Shown: positions 27,694 through 38,421, numbered from the stretch's first letter. The stretch is 64,000 nt of DNA from an uncultured Chloroflexota bacterium (GCA_937879875.1 CALFMN010000231.1:1-64000); one strand, 5' to 3'. Numbers and translations are program-made. The notes: a model not told the origin generated them from the letters alone.

Positions 27694-27788
27694 TCGGCGC
27701 GTGGCGTTGCCGCATGGGCGCGCAGCGCTTCCCCCAACGGCAGAGAACACGTCCGGCGATCACACTCCGGCCCCATGCGAGGTGAGCG

Positions 27789-28043
27789 ATGGCGATCCGC
27801 GGCTACGTGCTGATCGAAACCGAGGTCGGGAGCGCCCGCAGCGTTGGCGAGCAGATGCAGCGCATGAACCATCAGGACGCGCGTGTGGTTGCCGTCGATA
27901 CCGTCACAGGGCCGTACGATGTGATCGTGCAGCTCGAAGCCGAGGATCTGGACAAGCTCGGCAACTGCATCACCGACGGCATCCAGGCCGTGGGCGGCGT
28001 CAAGCGCACCACCACCTGCCTCGCCGTGCGCCTGGGCGGATGA
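27789..28043 (+). CDS. Lrp/AsnC ligand-binding-domain-only protein
   Basis: 84 aa RAM/AsnC_trans_reg-like domain; GAGGTGA RBS. Confidence 0.6.
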   Translation: MAIRGYVLIETEVGSARSVGEQMQRMNHQDARVVAVDTVTGPYDVIVQLEAEDLDKLGNCITDGIQAVGGVKRTTTCLAVRLGG

Positions 28044-28065
28044 ACGGCTCTTTGGGATTTGCGGC

Positions 28066-29325
28066 ATGATCAGTGTCGAAGAAGCGCTCGAACGCATCCT
28101 CTCCTTCGTGCACGAGCTGGAGCCCGAGGAGCAGCCGCTGCTGAGCGCGCTCGGCCAGGTGCTGGCGGAAGACGCCGTGGCGTCGTTCAGTATCCCGCCG
28201 CTGGACAACACCGCGATGGACGGCTACGCCGTGATCGCGGCGAGCACGGAGGGCGCCTCTGAGGCGCAGCCGGTGACGCTGCGGGTGATCGGCGAGCTGG
28301 CCGCCGGCTACGTCTATGACGGCGAGGTTTCGCCCGGCACGGCCGTGCGCATCATGACCGGCGCGCCCATGCCGCGTGGCGCTGACTCGATCGTGCCCTT
28401 TGAAGAGACCGATGAAACGGGCTTTGTGCCGCCGAACAAGACGGGCGCCCTCGATACGACCGTGCGCGTGTTCAAGGCTGCGAAGCCCGGCAACAACATC
28501 CGCTGCAGCGGCGAAGATGTGCACGAGGGCGAAGTGGTGCTGCCGCGCGGCACGTTTCTGCGCCCGGCGCACATCGGCGTGCTCGCGTCGCTCGGCCGCA
28601 CCAGCGTGCGTGTAATCCGCCGGCCGGTCGTGGCGATCCTCTCCACCGGCGACGAGATTCTGGAGCCCGGCGAGCAGCGCCGGCCGGGCACGATCTACGA
28701 CAGCAATGCCTACAGCCTCGCCTCGCTGGTGACGCGCGCCGGCGGTGTGCCGCTGCGGCTGGGCATCGCCCGCGACACGATCGAAGACCTGACCGCGAAA
28801 GTACACGCAGGGCTGAGCGCCGATCTGCTGATCACCTCGGCCGGCGTGTCGCGCGGCGATTTTGATGTGGTCAAAGACGTGCTGCAGCGCGAAGGCAGCA
28901 TCGACTTTCATCTCGTCAACATGCGCCCCGGCAAGCCGCTCGCCTTCGGCACGTTTCGCCAGGGCGAGCGCGTGGTGCCGCACATCGGCCTGCCGGGCAA
29001 CCCGGTCAGCTCGATGCTGGTCTTTGAGCTGTTCGGCCGGCCGGCGCTGTACACGATGCTCGGCCGGCCGCAGACGCAGAAGCTGACGGTTCAGGCTGTG
29101 ACCAAAGACCGCCTGCGCATGACGGATGGCCGCCGCTTTTACGCCCGCTGCATCGTCTCGCGCGAAAACGGCGGCTGGGTGGCGCGGCTCGCCGGATCGC
29201 AAAGCTCCGGCGTGCTCACCTCGATGGCCCGCGCCAACGGCCTTGCCGTCGTGCCCGAAGGCAGCCCCGACGTGCAGCCAGGCGAAACGGTGACGGTGAT
29301 GCTGCTCGACAGCGAGATCGAGTAG
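28066..29325 (+). CDS. moeA: molybdopterin molybdenumtransferase
   Basis: Full-length MoeA domains (PLDNTAMDGYAV...; GGVS MoCF-binding region). Confidence 0.9.
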   Translation: MISVEEALERILSFVHELEPEEQPLLSALGQVLAEDAVASFSIPPLDNTAMDGYAVIAASTEGASEAQPVTLRVIGELAAGYVYDGEVSPGTAVRIMTGAPMPRGADSIVPFEETDETGFVPPNKTGALDTTVRVFKAAKPGNNIRCSGEDVHEGEVVLPRGTFLRPAHIGVLASLGRTSVRVIRRPVVAILSTGDEILEPGEQRRPGTIYDSNAYSLASLVTRAGGVPLRLGIARDTIEDLTAKVHAGLSADLLITSAGVSRGDFDVVKDVLQREGSIDFHLVNMRPGKPLAFGTFRQGERVVPHIGLPGNPVSSMLVFELFGRPALYTMLGRPQTQKLTVQAVTKDRLRMTDGRRFYARCIVSRENGGWVARLAGSQSSGVLTSMARANGLAVVPEGSPDVQPGETVTVMLLDSEIE

Positions 29326-33269: not shown

Positions 33270-33408
33270 GGCCCTCACCCCCGTCCCCTCTCCCAATCCT
33301 GGGAGAGGGGCGATCCCGCGTCGGGCGATCCGATCGGTTTGCGGTTAACCGTTTGCTGCTCGGAACGCTCAGTGCAGGATCGTCTCCTTCCCTCCAGAAT
33401 TGGGGATC
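33270..33408. repeat. MITE-like family A, copy 6 (intact left TIR, decayed right TIR)
   Basis: GGCCCTCACCCCCGTCCCCTCTCCCAATCCTGGGAGAGGGGCGATCCCG ... GCGGTTAACCGTTTGCTGCTCGGAACGCTCAG ... degenerate inverted end. Confidence 0.55.
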
Positions 33409-33697: not shown

Positions 33698-33726
33698 TTG
33701 TGCCGCTCGCGGTTGAGTTCTATAAT
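33698..33726 (+). promoter_or_regulatory. candidate sigma-A promoter for the rrf2-cys operon (TTGTGC - 17 nt - TATAAT)
   Basis: Perfect TATAAT at 33721-33726 in an AT-rich patch about 50 nt upstream of the rrf2 start. Confidence 0.45.
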
Positions 33727-33774
33727 GTTGATAAGATTAGTCCACTTTAGGGCGGGCTTGCCGGGGTTGAGGGA

Positions 33775-34209
33775 GTGAAGGTTTCCACCAAAGGCGATTA
33801 CGGCGTGCGGGCGCTGATTGAGCTGGCGCTGCACTACGGCCAGGGGCCGCTGCAGAGCGCCGAGATCGCCGCCCGCCAGCGCATTCCCGAACCGTATCTT
33901 GACCACCTGCTGACCACGCTGCGACGTGCCGGCTTCATCCGCAGCGTGCGCGGGCCGCAGGGCGGCCACGAGCTGGTGCGCGAGCCTGACAAACTGCCGC
34001 TCGACGAGGTGATCGAGTCGCTCGAAGGCTCACTGATCCCCAGCGCCTGTCTGGACGAGGGCAGCCCCTGCGCCAGGCACGGCGGTTGCGCCCAGCGCGA
34101 GATGTGGCAGGAGGTCTACGACGCGACGCGCGAGATCCTGCACCGCACCACGATTGCGGATCTGGCGGCGCGCGAGCGCCAGCCGGCCGGCGGGCGTTAC
34201 TACATTTAG
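33775..34209 (+). CDS. Rrf2 family transcriptional regulator (CymR/IscR-like)
   Basis: MKVSTKGDYGVRALIELA wHTH N-terminus; three Cys in C-terminal half; directly upstream of cysK. Confidence 0.85.
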   Translation: MKVSTKGDYGVRALIELALHYGQGPLQSAEIAARQRIPEPYLDHLLTTLRRAGFIRSVRGPQGGHELVREPDKLPLDEVIESLEGSLIPSACLDEGSPCARHGGCAQREMWQEVYDATREILHRTTIADLAARERQPAGGRYYI

Positions 34210-34257
34210 GGCGTAGGGCGTAGGGCGTAGGGCGTAGGGCGTAGGGCGTAGGGCGTA
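34209..34257 (+). repeat. (GGGCGTA)x7 perfect tandem heptamer; canonical G3N4 quadruplex motif in the rrf2-cysK spacer
   Basis: Direct reading; overlaps the rrf2 TAG stop and ends 8 nt before the cysK ATG (GGAGGG RBS follows). Confidence 0.85.
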
Positions 34258-34265
34258 GGAGGGTC

Positions 34266-35243
34266 ATGAAGCAGGCGGCGCAAGTGGGCGATGGCGTTGA
34301 GGCCGGGGGTGGCACGGCGGCGGTGCGCACGACGTGCGTGGCCGATTCGGTGCTGGATCTCGTCGGCAACACGCCGCTGGTGCGGCTGAACCGGCTGCCG
34401 GGGCCGCGCAGCGCCGCCGTGCTGGGCAAGCTGGAATCGCTCAACCCGGCCGGCAGCGTCAAAGACCGCATCGCCGTGGCGATGGTCGAAGCGGCCGAGC
34501 GCGAGGGGCGCCTGCAGCCTGGCGCCACGATCGTCGAGCCGACCAGCGGCAATACCGGCATCGGCCTGGCAATGGTCGCCGCGGTCAAGGGCTACCGCCT
34601 GATTCTGACCATGCCCGAAGACATGAGCATGGAGCGGCGCAAGCTGTTCACCCGCTTCGGCGCCGAACTGCGGCTCACACCGGCGCTCGAGGGCATGACC
34701 GGCGCCGTCTTCGCCGCCGAAGAACTGGTGCGCGAGCACCCCGAATACTTCATGCCTCAGCAGTTCCAGAATCCGGCCAACCCCGAGATCCATCGCCTGA
34801 CCACCGGCCCGGAGATCCTGCACGCCACCGGCGGCAGGGTCGATGCCTTCGTCGCCGGCGTGGGTACGGGCGGTACGATCACCGGCGTGGGCGAGGTGCT
34901 GCGTGCATACAACCCAAGCACGTTGATCGTCGCGGTTGAACCAGCGCGCTCGCAGATCCTGCGCGGCGGCCGCGCCGGCATGCACGCGATCCAGGGCATC
35001 GGCGCGAGCTTCGTGCCCGGCGTGCTGAACCGGCAGGTCTATCAGGAGCTGATGGCCGTGGGCGACGACGACGCGATCGAGATGTCGCAGCGGCTTGCAC
35101 GGGAGGAGGGGCTGCTGGTGGGCATCTCCTCCGGCGCCAACGTCTTCGCGGCGCTCAAGGTCGCGCGGCGGCTGGGCGCCGGCAAAACCGTCGTGACGAT
35201 GCTCTGCGACACCGGCGAACGGTATCTCAGCGCGGCCGTGTAA
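34266..35243 (+). CDS. cysK: cysteine synthase A (O-acetylserine sulfhydrylase)
   Basis: PLP Lys motif SVKDR, TSGNTGIGLA, full length. Confidence 0.9.
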   Translation: MKQAAQVGDGVEAGGGTAAVRTTCVADSVLDLVGNTPLVRLNRLPGPRSAAVLGKLESLNPAGSVKDRIAVAMVEAAEREGRLQPGATIVEPTSGNTGIGLAMVAAVKGYRLILTMPEDMSMERRKLFTRFGAELRLTPALEGMTGAVFAAEELVREHPEYFMPQQFQNPANPEIHRLTTGPEILHATGGRVDAFVAGVGTGGTITGVGEVLRAYNPSTLIVAVEPARSQILRGGRAGMHAIQGIGASFVPGVLNRQVYQELMAVGDDDAIEMSQRLAREEGLLVGISSGANVFAALKVARRLGAGKTVVTMLCDTGERYLSAAV

Positions 35244-35342
35244 CGGTTTGGACGATCGCGACGACTGAAGATGATTGACGATGATTGACATTTTTGTGGC
35301 TGGGACCGCCGCTCCGTCCGGACCCTGAGGGAGAGAACACGC

Positions 35343-36452
35343 ATGACCGTCCAGGTCTACATTCCGACGCCGTTCCGCCGTCTCACCGGCAACCGCACGC
35401 GCGTCGCAGCCGAAGGCCAGACCGTGGGCGAGGTGCTGCGGCGTCTGAACGAGCACTACCCCGGCTTCAACGAGCTGCTGTACGACGAATCGAAGGCGAT
35501 CCCGGCGCATATCAACATCTACCTGAACAACCAGGAGATTCACAGTCTTCAGGGAGAGGAGACCCCCGTGGCAGACGGAGACGAAGTTGCAGTGATTCCC
35601 GCAATCGCGGGCGGATCGGGCACGGCGCTGCGGCCCGATCAGGTAACGCGCTACTCGCGGCACATCATCATGCCGCAGGTGGGGCCGGTCGGACAGCGCA
35701 AATTAATGGCGGCGAAAGTGCTGATCGTCGGCGCGGGCGGGCTCGGCTCGCCGGTCTCGCTCTATCTGGCGCTCGCGGGCATCGGCACGATCGGCATCGT
35801 CGACTTCGACGTGGTCGATCTGACCAACCTGCAACGGCAGATCCTGCACCAGAACGACGACATCGGCCGGCCGAAGGTCGACTCGGCGCGCGAAACGTTG
35901 AACTCGTATAACCCCGACGTCAACGTGATCACGCACGAGGTGCCGCTCACGTCCGAGAACGCGCTGGAGATCATCCCGCAGTACGACATCGTCGTGAACG
36001 GCGCGGACAACTTCGCCACGCGCTATCTCGTCAACGACGCCTGCTATCTCTCCGGCAAGCCGCTGGTGGACGGCAGCATCCTGCTGTTCGACGGCCAGGC
36101 CTCGACCTATCTGCCGGGCAAGGGCTGCTATCGCTGCCTCTTCCCGGAGCCGCCGCCGCCGGGCATGGTGCCCTCCTGCGCCGAAGCGGGCGTGCTCGGC
36201 GCCCTCTGCGGCACGGTGGGCTCGATCCAGGCGACGGAAGTGCTGAAGCTGATCCTCGGCGTGGGCGAGCCTCTCATCGGCCGGCTGCTGCTGTACGACG
36301 CGCTCTCGATGGAGATGCGTACCGTGAAGACGCGGCGCGACCCGAAGTGCCCGCTCTGCGGCGACAACCCGACCGTGACCGAGCTGATCGATTACGATGC
36401 CTTCTGTGGCGGCCCGCCGCACGTGGCCAACGCGCCGGTTGCGGCCGGCTAG
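35343..36452 (+). CDS. fusion protein: N-terminal CysO/MoaD-like sulfur carrier (ends ...AIAGG) + MoeZ/MoeB/ThiF-type E1 adenylyltransferase (no rhodanese domain)
   Basis: Residues 1-92 align with the stand-alone carrier at 36508; then RYSRHI, GAGGLGS, two CxxC pairs of an E1; single ORF, GAGGGA RBS. Confidence 0.8.
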   Translation: MTVQVYIPTPFRRLTGNRTRVAAEGQTVGEVLRRLNEHYPGFNELLYDESKAIPAHINIYLNNQEIHSLQGEETPVADGDEVAVIPAIAGGSGTALRPDQVTRYSRHIIMPQVGPVGQRKLMAAKVLIVGAGGLGSPVSLYLALAGIGTIGIVDFDVVDLTNLQRQILHQNDDIGRPKVDSARETLNSYNPDVNVITHEVPLTSENALEIIPQYDIVVNGADNFATRYLVNDACYLSGKPLVDGSILLFDGQASTYLPGKGCYRCLFPEPPPPGMVPSCAEAGVLGALCGTVGSIQATEVLKLILGVGEPLIGRLLLYDALSMEMRTVKTRRDPKCPLCGDNPTVTELIDYDAFCGGPPHVANAPVAAG

Positions 36453-36507
36453 CATCCTGAACAGACACGCGGCGGGGCTTTCGCGCCCCGCCGAGGAGTT
36501 GTGGTCA

Positions 36508-36786
36508 ATGGCCGTCGAAGTCCGTGTCACCGCCGTGCTGCAGAAGCTCACGGGAGGCAAGAAGAGCGTGCCCGCCGAGGGCGGCACGGTGGACCAGCTG
36601 CTCAAGAATCTCGACACCAACTACCCCGGCTTCCGCCACCAGGTGCAGGGCGATGACGGCAGGCTGCACCGCTTCGTCAACATCTACCTGAACGACGAGG
36701 ACATCCGCTATCTCAGTCAGCTCAACACGCCGCTCAAAGACGGTGATGTGGTCTCCATCCTGCCGGCGCTGGCGGGCGGCGCATGA
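36508..36786 (+). CDS. cysO: CysO/MoaD-like ubiquitin-fold sulfur carrier ending ...LAGGA
   Basis: 92 aa; paralog of the N-domain of the preceding fusion; C-terminal GG followed by one Ala; GAGGAG RBS. Confidence 0.75.
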   Translation: MAVEVRVTAVLQKLTGGKKSVPAEGGTVDQLLKNLDTNYPGFRHQVQGDDGRLHRFVNIYLNDEDIRYLSQLNTPLKDGDVVSILPALAGGA

Positions 36787-36861
36787 ACCGCCGCCTTTGG
36801 GGGCTGCCCGAGGGCTTCGGCCTGCGCGCCGGGGCGTCGGCGGTGTCGCCGCCGCGCCTAC

Positions 36862-36994
36862 CCCTGCCGGCTAACGCCGGCTGTCCCCTCCCCACAGGGG
36901 AGGGGTTGGTCTGAGGAACCCCGGTAGCCCTCGGACCACCCTTCCCGCGTCGGGAAGGGAGATTTCGCTTAAGCGAAATCGGGGTTAGGTAGCC
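36862..36994. repeat. MITE-like family B, compact copy (serial perfect hairpins)
   Basis: GCCGGCTAACGCCGGC, CCCCTCCCCACAGGGGAGGGG, CCCTTCCCGCGTCGGGAAGGG, GATTTCGCTTAAGCGAAATC, GGGGTTAGGTAGCC; homologous to 42339-42557. Confidence 0.55.
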
Positions 36995-37064
36995 GCGTGG
37001 CTGCCAGAGCCTCGTCCTGCACTATCCCCTGCGACCATGCATTGTGCCCGCCTCGGGAGGCTCC

Positions 37065-38003
37065 ATGCTTTACGCGAACATCCTCGACGCGATCGGCAAC
37101 ACACCGCTGGTCGAGCTGCCGCACACCAGCCCCAACCCGAACGTCAAGATCTACGCCAAGCTCGAGGGCCAAAACCCCTCGGGCAGCGTCAAAGACCGCT
37201 GCGCCAAGTACATGATCGACGCCGCCGAGCGCGATGGCCTGCTCGACGACGACAAGATCATTCTGGAGCCGACCAGCGGCAACACGGGCATCGCCCTGGC
37301 GATGATCGGCCGCGTCAAGGGCTACCAGGTGATGGTCGTGATCCCGGAGAGCGTCAGCGAGGAGCGGAGTCAGCTCCTGCGCGCCTACGGCGCCGAGATC
37401 GTCTACTCCGAGGGGCTGAAGGGCACCAACGGCTCGATCGCCGTGGCGCAGCAGATGGTGGCCGAGGCGCCGCAGCGCTTCTACATGCCGTATCAATACG
37501 GCAACGAGGCCAACCCCCGCGCCCACTACGAAACCACCGGCCCGGAGATCGTGCGTGACCTGCCGGACATCGATGTCTTCGTCGCCGGCCTCGGCACGGG
37601 CGGCACGCTCACCGGCACCGGCCGCTACCTCAAGGAATACAACCCGAAGATCAAGGTCATCGCCACGGTGCCGCACCCTGGCGATTTGGTGCAGGGGCTG
37701 CGCAGCCTGGAAGAGGGCTTCATCCCGCCCGTGCTGGACGAGTCGGTGCTCGACGGCCGCGTGGTGGTCGACAGCCGCACCGCCTTCGCCGCCACCAAAG
37801 AGCTGACGCAGCAAGAAGGCATCTTCGCCGGCATCTCCTGCGGCGCGGCGGTGAAGACGGCGCAGCGCATCGCCGGGCGCATGGAGAGCGGCAAAGTCGT
37901 CGTCTTGCTGGCGGACGGCGGCTGGAAATACCTTTCAACCGCGCTGTGGACGACCGAGTACGGCGATCTGCCCGAGGACATCGACAGCAAGGTCTGGTGG
38001 TAG
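37065..38003 (+). CDS. cysM: cysteine synthase, CysM-type (CysO-thiocarboxylate dependent)
   Basis: SVKDR PLP motif, TSGNTGIALA; ATG at 37065 with GGGAGG RBS. Confidence 0.85.
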   Translation: MLYANILDAIGNTPLVELPHTSPNPNVKIYAKLEGQNPSGSVKDRCAKYMIDAAERDGLLDDDKIILEPTSGNTGIALAMIGRVKGYQVMVVIPESVSEERSQLLRAYGAEIVYSEGLKGTNGSIAVAQQMVAEAPQRFYMPYQYGNEANPRAHYETTGPEIVRDLPDIDVFVAGLGTGGTLTGTGRYLKEYNPKIKVIATVPHPGDLVQGLRSLEEGFIPPVLDESVLDGRVVVDSRTAFAATKELTQQEGIFAGISCGAAVKTAQRIAGRMESGKVVVLLADGGWKYLSTALWTTEYGDLPEDIDSKVWW

Positions 38004-38010
38004 CAGAGCC

Positions 38011-38421
38011 GTGACGCTGACGCTGCCGCGCGACTACGTCGAACAGATCGTCGCCCACGCCCGCCGCGAGGCGCCGAACGAGTGCTGCGGCGTGGTCGCG
38101 GGCAAGGACGGCGCCGCGGTCAAGCTCTGGCAGGCGACGAACGCCGAGCACAGCCCCTACCGCTACAGTATCGAGGGCAAAGAACTGCTGCAGATCATGC
38201 GGCTGCTGCAAGACAACGACTGGGAGATGTTGGCCGTCTATCACTCGCACACGCACACGCCTGCCTATCCAAGCCCCACCGACCGGCGCCAGGTGATGCT
38301 CTCCGGCTGGGACCAGCCGTACTATGTGCTTGTCTCGCTCGCCGAAGAGCCGCCGGACGTGCGCGCCTACACGATCCGCGATGGCGCCATCGCCGAGCAG
38401 CGGTTGATCGTGAATGACTAG
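38011..38421 (+). CDS. mec: JAMM/MPN+ metalloprotease (Mec+-type)
   Basis: E-x(n)-HSHTHTPAYPSPTD JAMM motif; 136 aa. Confidence 0.85.
   Translation: MTLTLPRDYVEQIVAHARREAPNECCGVVAGKDGAAVKLWQATNAEHSPYRYSIEGKELLQIMRLLQDNDWEMLAVYHSHTHTPAYPSPTDRRQVMLSGWDQPYYVLVSLAEEPPDVRAYTIRDGAIAEQRLIVND

Follow-up and report, generated by a model that had tools for sequence, protein, structure and literature searches.

A ubiquitin-fold carrier fused to an E1 enzyme in a Chloroflexota cysteine operon, a candidate proprotein for a JAMM protease

A 64,000-nucleotide stretch of DNA from an uncultured Chloroflexota bacterium (GCA_937879875.1, CALFMN010000231.1:1-64000; hereafter the window) carries at 33775-38421 six co-directional + strand genes encoding, in order, an Rrf2 regulator, the cysteine synthase CysK, a fusion of a ubiquitin-like domain (Ubl) to an E1 enzyme, a free CysO carrier (CysO2), a second cysteine synthase, CysM, and a JAMM metalloprotease. 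The cluster is a cysteine-biosynthesis operon in which a direct route, through CysK, stands beside the protein-thiocarboxylate route known from Mycobacterium tuberculosis, through CysO, CysM and Mec+. Based on the conservation of its junction and on gene neighbourhoods in related genomes, we propose that the fusion, Ubl(1-91)-SGTA-E1, is probably a proprotein cut by JAMM, the released E1 then serving both carriers. The pathway assignment is much firmer than this cleavage step.

The fusion protein and its junction

The fusion gene (35343-36452, + strand) encodes 369 aa and begins with an ATG that has a Shine-Dalgarno-like GGGAGAG 7 nt upstream; domain searches assign aa 5-91 to PF02597 (5.5e-16) and aa 104-337 to PF00899 (1.6e-84). 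The N-terminal part is a CysO/MoaD-like ubiquitin-fold domain (aa 1-91, 35343..35615) that ends in AIAGG, with the Gly-Gly codons at 35610-35615, and whose best solved relative is M. tuberculosis CysO (3dwg_C, 4e-15). It is followed by the four-residue linker SGTA (35616..35627), in which the bond between G91 and S92 is the candidate JAMM cleavage site, the whole junction reading VIPAIAGG(90-91)-SGTA-LRPDQVTRYSRH; the linker length of about four residues comes from an alignment in which E. coli MoeB residue 6 falls on fusion residue 98. The remainder (35628..36452) is a MoeB/MoeZ-type E1 adenylyltransferase domain that aligns end to end with E. coli MoeB (1jw9_B, 3.4e-56) and ThiF (1zfn, 1.3e-55), and that keeps the GxGxxG motif (G130/G132/G135), the arginines R103 and R106, two CxxC pairs (C262/C265 and C336/C339) and the loop cysteine C279. 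No rhodanese match was found in the fusion protein or elsewhere in the 64 kb. These results bear out the original prediction, made from the DNA alone, of an in-frame N-terminal carrier that aligns with the beta-grasp sulfur-carrier family, ends in AIAGG and is joined by SGTA to an E1 that, unlike MoeZ, has no C-terminal rhodanese. The E1 does carry a conserved C-terminal stub (IDY..FCG; L348 I349 D350 Y351 ... C355 G356; aa 347-369, 36380-36449) equivalent to the segment that joins E1 to rhodanese in three-domain relatives, a pattern suggesting that the conserved stub cysteine has been kept after loss of the rhodanese domain.

The exact 369-aa protein occurs on three public contigs, which confirms that the frame runs from carrier to E1 with no frameshift or stop, and both Pfam domains are present in 119 of the 120 nearest clusters at 90% identity. 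The fusion had also been called unusual for an E1, a claim that did not hold: an N-terminal Ubl is present in 20 of the 150 best cluster representatives at 50% identity, and MoaD-MoeB fusions have been catalogued before (PMC11237513, PMC2948915). Those 20 representatives comprise nine Ubl-E1 proteins, eight Ubl-E1-rhodanese proteins, one Ubl-rhodanese-E1 protein and two with a JAB domain before the Ubl. The latter two are single polypeptides, JAB-Ubl-rhodanese-E1 (P0131, 634 aa) and JAB-Ubl-E1-rhodanese (P0198, 619 aa), with intact JAB motifs (HSHPD...S..D) and a Ubl ending in GG, such that protease, carrier, sulfurtransferase and activator are united in one chain. A genomic survey using one genome per species found fused genes in Chloroflexota, Acidobacteriota, Gemmatimonadota, Elusimicrobia, archaea of the Thermoplasmata and others, the rhodanese-free form in Chloroflexota and the rhodanese-bearing form in Acidobacteriota, Gemmatimonadota and Elusimicrobia.

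Within these proteins the junction follows a consistent pattern. Alignments of 16 diverse and of 90 close homologues show no change at G90 or G91, and the junction GG is likewise fixed in 28 genomic fusions with variable linkers; the segment after the GG ranges among homologues from about 2 to >25 aa and has no conserved sequence. An invariant Gly-Gly followed by a freely varying linker fits a carrier or a JAMM substrate, and a purely structural domain would need no such pattern. Moreover, no start codon (ATG, GTG or TTG) occurs in frame between G91 and M110, so that the E1 with its N-terminal Arg103/Arg106 helix can be made only as a fusion. The AlphaFold2 (AF2) model consists of two confident domains and a low-confidence junction, with a predicted local distance difference test score (pLDDT) <50 at residues 88-91 and 102-113; as a monomer model it cannot show docking in cis or in trans. 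Its E1 part superposes on 1jw9_B (Foldseek TMt 0.87), and Foldseek matched this part only, returning no solved structure with the fused architecture.

Gene neighbourhoods of fused and separate carriers

We compared the 28 fused loci with 21 loci in which a separate Ubl gene adjoins the E1 gene and with 36 Ubl-less E1 loci, the last being mostly actinomycete MoeZ genes. A JAMM gene lies within 3 kb in 23/28, 12/21 and 0/36 of these loci, respectively (fused versus Ubl-less, Fisher p = 7e-13, for loci that are not phylogenetically independent). A cysteine-synthase-like gene is adjacent to the fusion in 23 of the 28 fused loci, none of which has a MoaE, MoaA/C or tRNA-thiolation gene adjoining the fusion, and thiamine neighbours (ThiG, ThiH/O, ThiC/D/E) were found neither in the operon nor among the window genes scanned (1-48 kb) nor in related loci. 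In 20 of the 28, no other Ubl is present nearby, which makes the fused domain the sole candidate carrier there; 18 of these 20 loci have both a JAMM and a cysteine-synthase-like gene, the usual order being synthase-JAMM-[Ubl-E1-rhodanese].

The synthases of these operons deserve comment. The pyridoxal phosphate (PLP) enzymes encoded upstream of JAMM in Acidobacteriota, Gemmatimonadota and Thermoplasmata (L004-L037, L057, L066, L076) share 40-45% identity with both CysK and CysM of the window, lack the G(F/Y)(I/V)P motif and end in ...KYLSE.FW(D/E). An attempt to sort them into CysK or CysM failed, given that they are about equally distant from both, and they look like a third, uncharacterised subfamily. 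The synthase-JAMM-[Ubl-E1-rhodanese] operons of three Thermoplasmata metagenome-assembled genomes (MAGs; L022, L023, L034) are 50-54% identical to bacterial ones, consistent with inter-domain transfer.

Where the Ubl is encoded separately and directly upstream of the E1 gene, it ends in GG plus 0-6 extra residues, usually 1-6, and is sometimes in the same frame. In three loci (L009, 7926-9434; L026, 1722-3245; L035, 7833-9455) the Ubl and the E1 lie in one frame with a single stop between them, 0-2 residues past the Gly-Gly (GG*AMT..., GGMY*MANV... and GGC*KME..., respectively, the asterisk marking the stop), an arrangement that could reflect recent fission or fusion, or possibly stop-codon read-through. 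In neighbour-joining (NJ) trees of the Ubl and of the E1, which carry no support values, fused proteins are intermingled with split ones, a pattern suggesting that genes have fused and separated repeatedly and, by extension, that both arrangements are equivalent in function.

In the window's own lineage the situation is more complex. The block Rrf2-CysK-[Ubl-E1]-CysO2-CysM is common to four relatives (L001, L081, L082, L083) whose fusions are 69-77% identical to that of the window, and the loci of this block are the only ones found to combine a fused and a free carrier with a rhodanese-less E1. A sister of this lineage (L002) has only Rrf2-CysK-fusion-JAMM, with no free carrier, and three further loci (L012, L014, L015) have an unfused E1 beside CysM and no Ubl nearby. 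In the 77% identical relative L081 (167-4522), genes for sulfite reductase, 3′-phosphoadenosine 5′-phosphosulfate reductase, adenosine 5′-phosphosulfate kinase and ATP sulfurylase lie directly upstream of Rrf2 and cysM is followed by a gene for a two-domain rhodanese; the window lacks both this gene and the sulfate-assimilation genes. We also noted a third ThiS/MoaD gene, ending exactly in GG, in L082 (1407-3196) and L001 (3646-4131). In L082, where it shortly precedes the Rrf2-CysK-fusion block, its neighbours encode a protein with a NIL domain and a PLP enzyme of 417 aa that resembles threonine synthase; the gene may belong to a separate carrier-dependent pathway, e.g. homocysteine synthesis.

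The free carrier of the window, CysO2 (36508..36786, + strand; 92 aa; PF02597, 1.6e-18), ends in ALAGG-A-stop, so that the second, stand-alone carrier was correctly described as running one residue past its Gly-Gly. Its best solved relative is also M. tuberculosis CysO (3dwg_C, 1.6e-22), followed by Amycolatopsis orientalis CysO (4n6e_B, 1.9e-21). The tails of its orthologues after the GG are 0, 1, 4 or 25 residues long (none, A, RGGR and a 25-aa tail), a variation expected if such tails are trimmed off. The two carriers align without gaps over 92 residues at 39% identity. In the NJ tree, CysO2 falls among characterised CysO proteins and the fused copy clusters with E1-linked Ubls from other phyla; a recent duplication was rejected on account of these separate clades, in a tree without support values, and the two carriers appear to be old, separate paralogue lineages whose roles may differ.

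Processing of the fusion and competing explanations

In the mechanism that we propose, the operon's JAMM would cut after Gly91, yielding an E1 that begins at Ser92 and a carrier whose Gly-Gly end has a free carboxylate, and would also remove Ala92 from free CysO2. The E1 dimer would then adenylate both carriers, and a persulfide or sulfide donor would turn the adenylates into thiocarboxylates; as the E1 has no rhodanese and none was found in the 64 kb, this donor would be encoded elsewhere. CysM would condense the carrier thiocarboxylate with O-phosphoserine, and JAMM would hydrolyse the carrier-cysteine adduct, as Mec+ does, releasing cysteine. The fusion could thus be seen as the end point of a series that starts with a carrier gene directly upstream of an E1 gene and bearing a short removable tail: since JAMM would already trim whatever follows the GG, loss of the stop codon would be costless, and it would provide 1:1 co-production of carrier and activator. 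The sequences themselves establish the domain identities, the reading frame, the conservation and the gene neighbourhoods; cleavage, thiocarboxylate formation and the pairing of carriers with synthases are steps that we infer.

The idea that a JAMM protease processes both carriers, by a logic akin to that of ubiquitin precursors, was part of the original prediction, and it gains comparative support from the invariant GG, from the JAMM linkage (23/28 against 0/36) and from the loci with the fused domain as sole carrier (20/28), cleavage itself being deduced. The reason first given for cleavage, a linker too short for the carrier to reach its own active site, has to be replaced: E1 enzymes adenylate a free C-terminal alpha-carboxylate, and therefore the fused domain, if it is a carrier, must first be cut, whatever the linker length. 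For the same reason, trans-adenylation within an E1 dimer, which had been offered as an alternative, cannot replace cleavage.

Several observations weigh against processing by JAMM. Five of the 28 fused loci have no JAMM within 3 kb, and the window's close relatives L082 and L083 have none within 6 kb. In the window itself, JAMM is weak evidence for cutting of the fusion, because a Mec+ role predicts its presence anyway, and the fused copy is not obviously needed where free CysO2 stands beside CysM. No rhodanese that could act as sulfur donor was found in the 64 kb, and the interleaving of fused and split forms comes from NJ trees without support values. Finally, the literature searched, which did not extend to the 2009 survey of the E1 superfamily, contained no cleavage experiment on any Ubl-E1 fusion.

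The most serious competitor, which we nevertheless regard as unlikely, is that the fused Ubl is never released and forms a permanent module of the E1, for example as a pseudo-substrate or regulatory plug, or as a docking domain for CysM, JAMM or a sulfurtransferase, leaving CysO2 as the sole carrier in this lineage. Iyer et al. 2006 reached a similar view of Ubl-ThiF fusions beside solo ThiS (PMC1779556), and the window's lineage is indeed the sole one found with both a fused and a solo Ubl, its carriers being old paralogues of which only CysO2 groups with characterised CysO; the relatives lacking an adjacent JAMM (L082, L083) also fit a permanent module. However, a structural domain needs neither an invariant C-terminal Gly-Gly nor a freely varying linker behind it, the fused domain is the only Ubl in most fused operons, L002 has a fusion and a JAMM with no free carrier, and the frequent switching between fused and split states argues for functional equivalence.

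Alternatively, the fused domain might be released and serve another pathway (molybdopterin, tRNA thiolation or SAMP-like conjugation), the E1 being a general MoeB shared with CysO2. This is how public annotation and the fusion catalogue would have it, both of which name such proteins MoaD-MoeB (PMC11237513), and a precedent exists in MoeZR, which serves CysO and MoaD alike (PMC3227635). A MoeA gene at 27925-29325, 4.5 kb upstream of the cluster and preceded by an 85-aa open reading frame (ORF; region 27786-29325), indicates that the organism makes molybdenum cofactor (Moco), for which it needs a MoaD and an E1, and no MoaD or E1 beyond those of the cluster was found in the 64 kb; there are also sub-threshold NCBIfam matches to the SAMP1, UbaA and desampylase models. 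Yet among solved structures the fused domain is closest to CysO and not to MoaD, MoaE, MoaA/C and tRNA-thiolation genes together adjoin 0/28 fusions as against the 23/28 with a cysteine-synthase-like gene, and no E2-like or target-specifying gene is present. We consider such a diversion to another pathway quite improbable. Lastly, an assembly or sequencing artefact, i.e., a stop lost or a frame shifted between adjacent genes like the in-frame pairs split by a single stop in L009, L026 and L035, has a negligible chance of being correct and was ruled out by the identical protein on three independent public contigs and by the same fused frame in 119/120 nearest clusters and in 28 loci across several phyla.

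Processing by JAMM can also be extended into a more specific reading, in which the fusion is a zymogen-like switch and the two carriers are dedicated to different synthases; we think it very unlikely that both parts hold. In the MoeB-MoaD structure, Lake et al. 2001 reportedly found that the ATP site of each subunit is reached by an N-terminal arginine from the other; if such an arrangement holds, a Ubl still attached to its E1 could bind across the dimer and bring its GG close to the active site of the partner. As a zymogen, the fusion would keep its uncleaved Ubl in the carrier groove of the partner subunit, blocking the E1 until JAMM cuts, with the GG held near the active site by the arginine-finger helix that starts about 5 residues further on; a single cut would activate the E1 and supply it with a carrier already in place, and JAMM would thereby control the whole relay. 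As for dedication, the fused carrier would serve the CysK-like enzyme whose gene always directly precedes it, as in L002 with its CysK, fusion and JAMM alone, and CysO2 would serve CysM. The only basis for linking the fused carrier to CysK is conserved gene order, which co-regulation explains equally well.

The operon, its flanks and its known relatives

ORF and domain profile searches found all the genes expected of a complete Rrf2-cysK-[CysO::E1]-cysO-cysM-mec cluster, flanked upstream by a divergent M17 aminopeptidase gene and downstream by a GltD-like oxidoreductase gene. The window's exact proteins are found in the public data of a Dehalococcoidia MAG, where the annotation is simply 'MoeB'. 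No second E1, further Ubl or second JAMM was found in the 64 kb. That both cysteine routes are encoded, as had been claimed, follows from the two synthases: CysK (34266..35243, +), of the O-acetylserine sulfhydrylase type, exceeds the TIGR01139 cysK cutoff (434 bits versus 351), and CysM (37065..38003, +) matches the M. tuberculosis O-phosphoserine/CysO-thiocarboxylate type. The true start of CysK may lie about 20 codons downstream of the called one, and its orthologues (71-75% identity) are directly upstream of the fusion in 5/5 related loci. The cysM ORF opens with a GTG at 37044, the more likely start being the ATG at 37065, which has a GGGAGG Shine-Dalgarno sequence. CysM aligns with M. 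tuberculosis CysM (3dki/3dwg, 1.7e-85) over its full length, residues 9-318, and keeps the Arg220 equivalent (GLRSLEEGF, in which the LR(S/N) arginine is aligned) as well as a C-terminal tail ending ...VWW, and by these predicted features it is of the O-phosphoserine-specific type. The Mec+-like JAMM/MPN+ metalloprotease (38011..38421, +; PF14464, 2.2e-23) starts 7 nt after cysM, matches the structures 2kks_A (1.5e-19) and archaeal JAMM1 5lda (2.7e-08), and has its catalytic motif E...HSHTHTPAYPSPTD intact (E...HSH...S..D); it had been placed with this motif 1.5 kb downstream, and the distance is corrected here to 1.56 kb from the fusion stop codon and 1.2 kb from the free carrier.

The operon is headed by the Rrf2-family regulator (33775..34209, +; PF02082, 2e-37; TIGR00738, 4.7e-36), which probably controls it and which also heads the conserved block in L001, L002, L081 and L082. 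The protein scores below the cutoffs of the CymR and IscR equivalog models; it carries a Cx6Cx5C motif (SACLDEGSPCARHGGC) that may be an iron-sulfur cluster binding site, as in the iron-sulfur-binding members IscR and NsrR. Its position next to cysK is reminiscent of the CymR-CysK regulatory pair of Bacillus subtilis. Upstream of the Rrf2 gene, at 33285-33310, lies a perfect hairpin with 11-bp arms (CCCCTCTCCCA-N4-TGGGAGAGGGG), and the spacer between cysK and the fusion contains at 35270-35289 a tandem 10-bp direct repeat (GATGATTGAC GATGATTGAC), ending in a TTGACA hexamer, that could act as an operator or as a promoter inside the operon. Another hairpin, GC-rich and with 9 bp in its stem (36470..36493), lies between the fusion stop codon and the CysO2 Shine-Dalgarno sequence, which it abuts; no T-run follows it on the + strand, and it might influence how well the downstream carrier is translated or how stable its mRNA is. 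Ahead of cysM, a 257-bp spacer holds three perfect inverted repeats, at 36885-36905 (CCCCTCCCC-ACA-GGGGAGGGG), 36939-36959 (CCCTTCCCG-CGT-CGGGAAGGG) and 36961-36980 (the 20-bp palindrome GATTTCGCTTAAGCGAAATC), the first a C/G-tract hairpin that the one upstream of Rrf2 resembles in style. Rfam found nothing in the intergenic hairpins at gathering thresholds, an E-value scan giving only sub-threshold chance matches; a sigma-70 scan found no promoter-like sites, and a terminator scan found one hairpin, no commoner than in shuffles.

The nearest characterised system is CysO-CysM-Mec+ with MoeZ in M. tuberculosis (Rv1334-1336 and Rv3206c), with which the window shares a GG carrier, an O-phosphoserine-type CysM, an adjacent JAMM and an E1 of the MoeB/MoeZ family. 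In contrast to that system, the window encodes its E1 within the operon, as a fusion with a second, paralogous carrier, the rhodanese of MoeZ is replaced by the IDY..FCG stub alone, CysK and Rrf2 are added to the block, and the free carrier has one residue past its GG. In this last respect CysO2 is like the carriers whose C-terminal extensions are trimmed by JAMM proteases (QbsE by QbsD, HcyS-Ala by HcyD, PdtH by PdtG), given its GG-A end, its orthologue tails of 0-25 residues and the JAMM in its operon. Those systems make quinolobactin, homocysteine and pyridine-2,6-dithiocarboxylic acid (PDTC), respectively, and their E1 is not known to be fused to a carrier.

Cleavage of linear carrier fusions by JAMM has experimental precedents. 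In Deinococcus radiodurans, DR0402 cuts the MoaD-MoaE-type fusion DR2607 (PMC8832034), and cleavage has likewise been described for M. tuberculosis MoaX (PMC4326299) and for SAMP1-MoaE by HvJAMM1 in H. volcanii (PMC4443979); that one E1 may serve several carriers is known from MoeZR (PMC3227635). These fusions are like the window's in their N-terminal carrier, their junction GG, the need to free a carboxylate and the linkage to JAMM, and differ in that the window's partner is the activating E1 instead of the sulfur acceptor MoaE, in a cysteine and not a Moco context, with cleavage that is here predicted. MoaD-MoeB and MoaD-MoeB-rhodanese fusions with the same architecture, PF02597 then PF00899 with or without rhodanese, have been catalogued under Moco in Thaumarchaeota, Rokubacteria/NC10 and Poseidoniales, the bacterial rhodanese-free form being reported in Rokubacteria and NC10 only (PMC11237513), and 'Ubl-E1-TBP' fusions have been described as common to Thaumarchaeota and bacteria (PMC2948915). 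The former catalogue suggested a relationship between Acidobacteria and archaea, which recurs here in the Thermoplasmata loci, and did not mention JAMM for these fusions; the surveys made no link to JAMM or cysteine synthases. The operon type JAB/ThiS-MoaD/E1-rhodanese/cysteine synthase was itself defined earlier, in a study that also found Ubl-ThiF fusions alongside a solo ThiS gene in the thiamine operons of Firmicutes and of delta/epsilon-proteobacteria, and that proposed a function other than that of a carrier for the fused domain (PMC1779556). Those fusions share with ours an N-terminal ubiquitin fold on the E1 and a second, solo carrier gene in the operon; as described, they are set apart by their thiamine context, a Ubl distinct from ThiS and the absence of a JAB, whereas the window has a CysO-like Ubl, a cysteine context and a JAMM.

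The Ubl-E1 architecture is thus already known, widespread and catalogued, and the processing proposed for it has direct precedents. Three things are new: the fusion is consistently tied to JAMM and cysteine synthases and not to genes for Moco; the carriers form a graded series that leads from a GG with a tail to a complete fusion; and in the window's lineage an E1 that lacks rhodanese is combined with two carriers, one fused and one free. Current understanding would not be overturned, every element having a documented precedent. If JAMM does cut Ubl-E1, the E1 of a bacterial sulfur relay would arise from a proprotein whose pro-domain is the enzyme's own substrate, freed by a deubiquitinase-type enzyme, in a close prokaryotic parallel to ubiquitin fusion precursors, which would explain why JAMM genes travel with these E1 genes. 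Proteins now named 'MoeB' or 'MoaD-MoeB' and filed under Moco would be reassigned to cysteine biosynthesis in Chloroflexota, Acidobacteriota, Gemmatimonadota and some Thermoplasmata, and the operon of the window, with a fused and a free carrier side by side, would offer a simple system for how one E1, one protease and two synthases distinguish two carriers.

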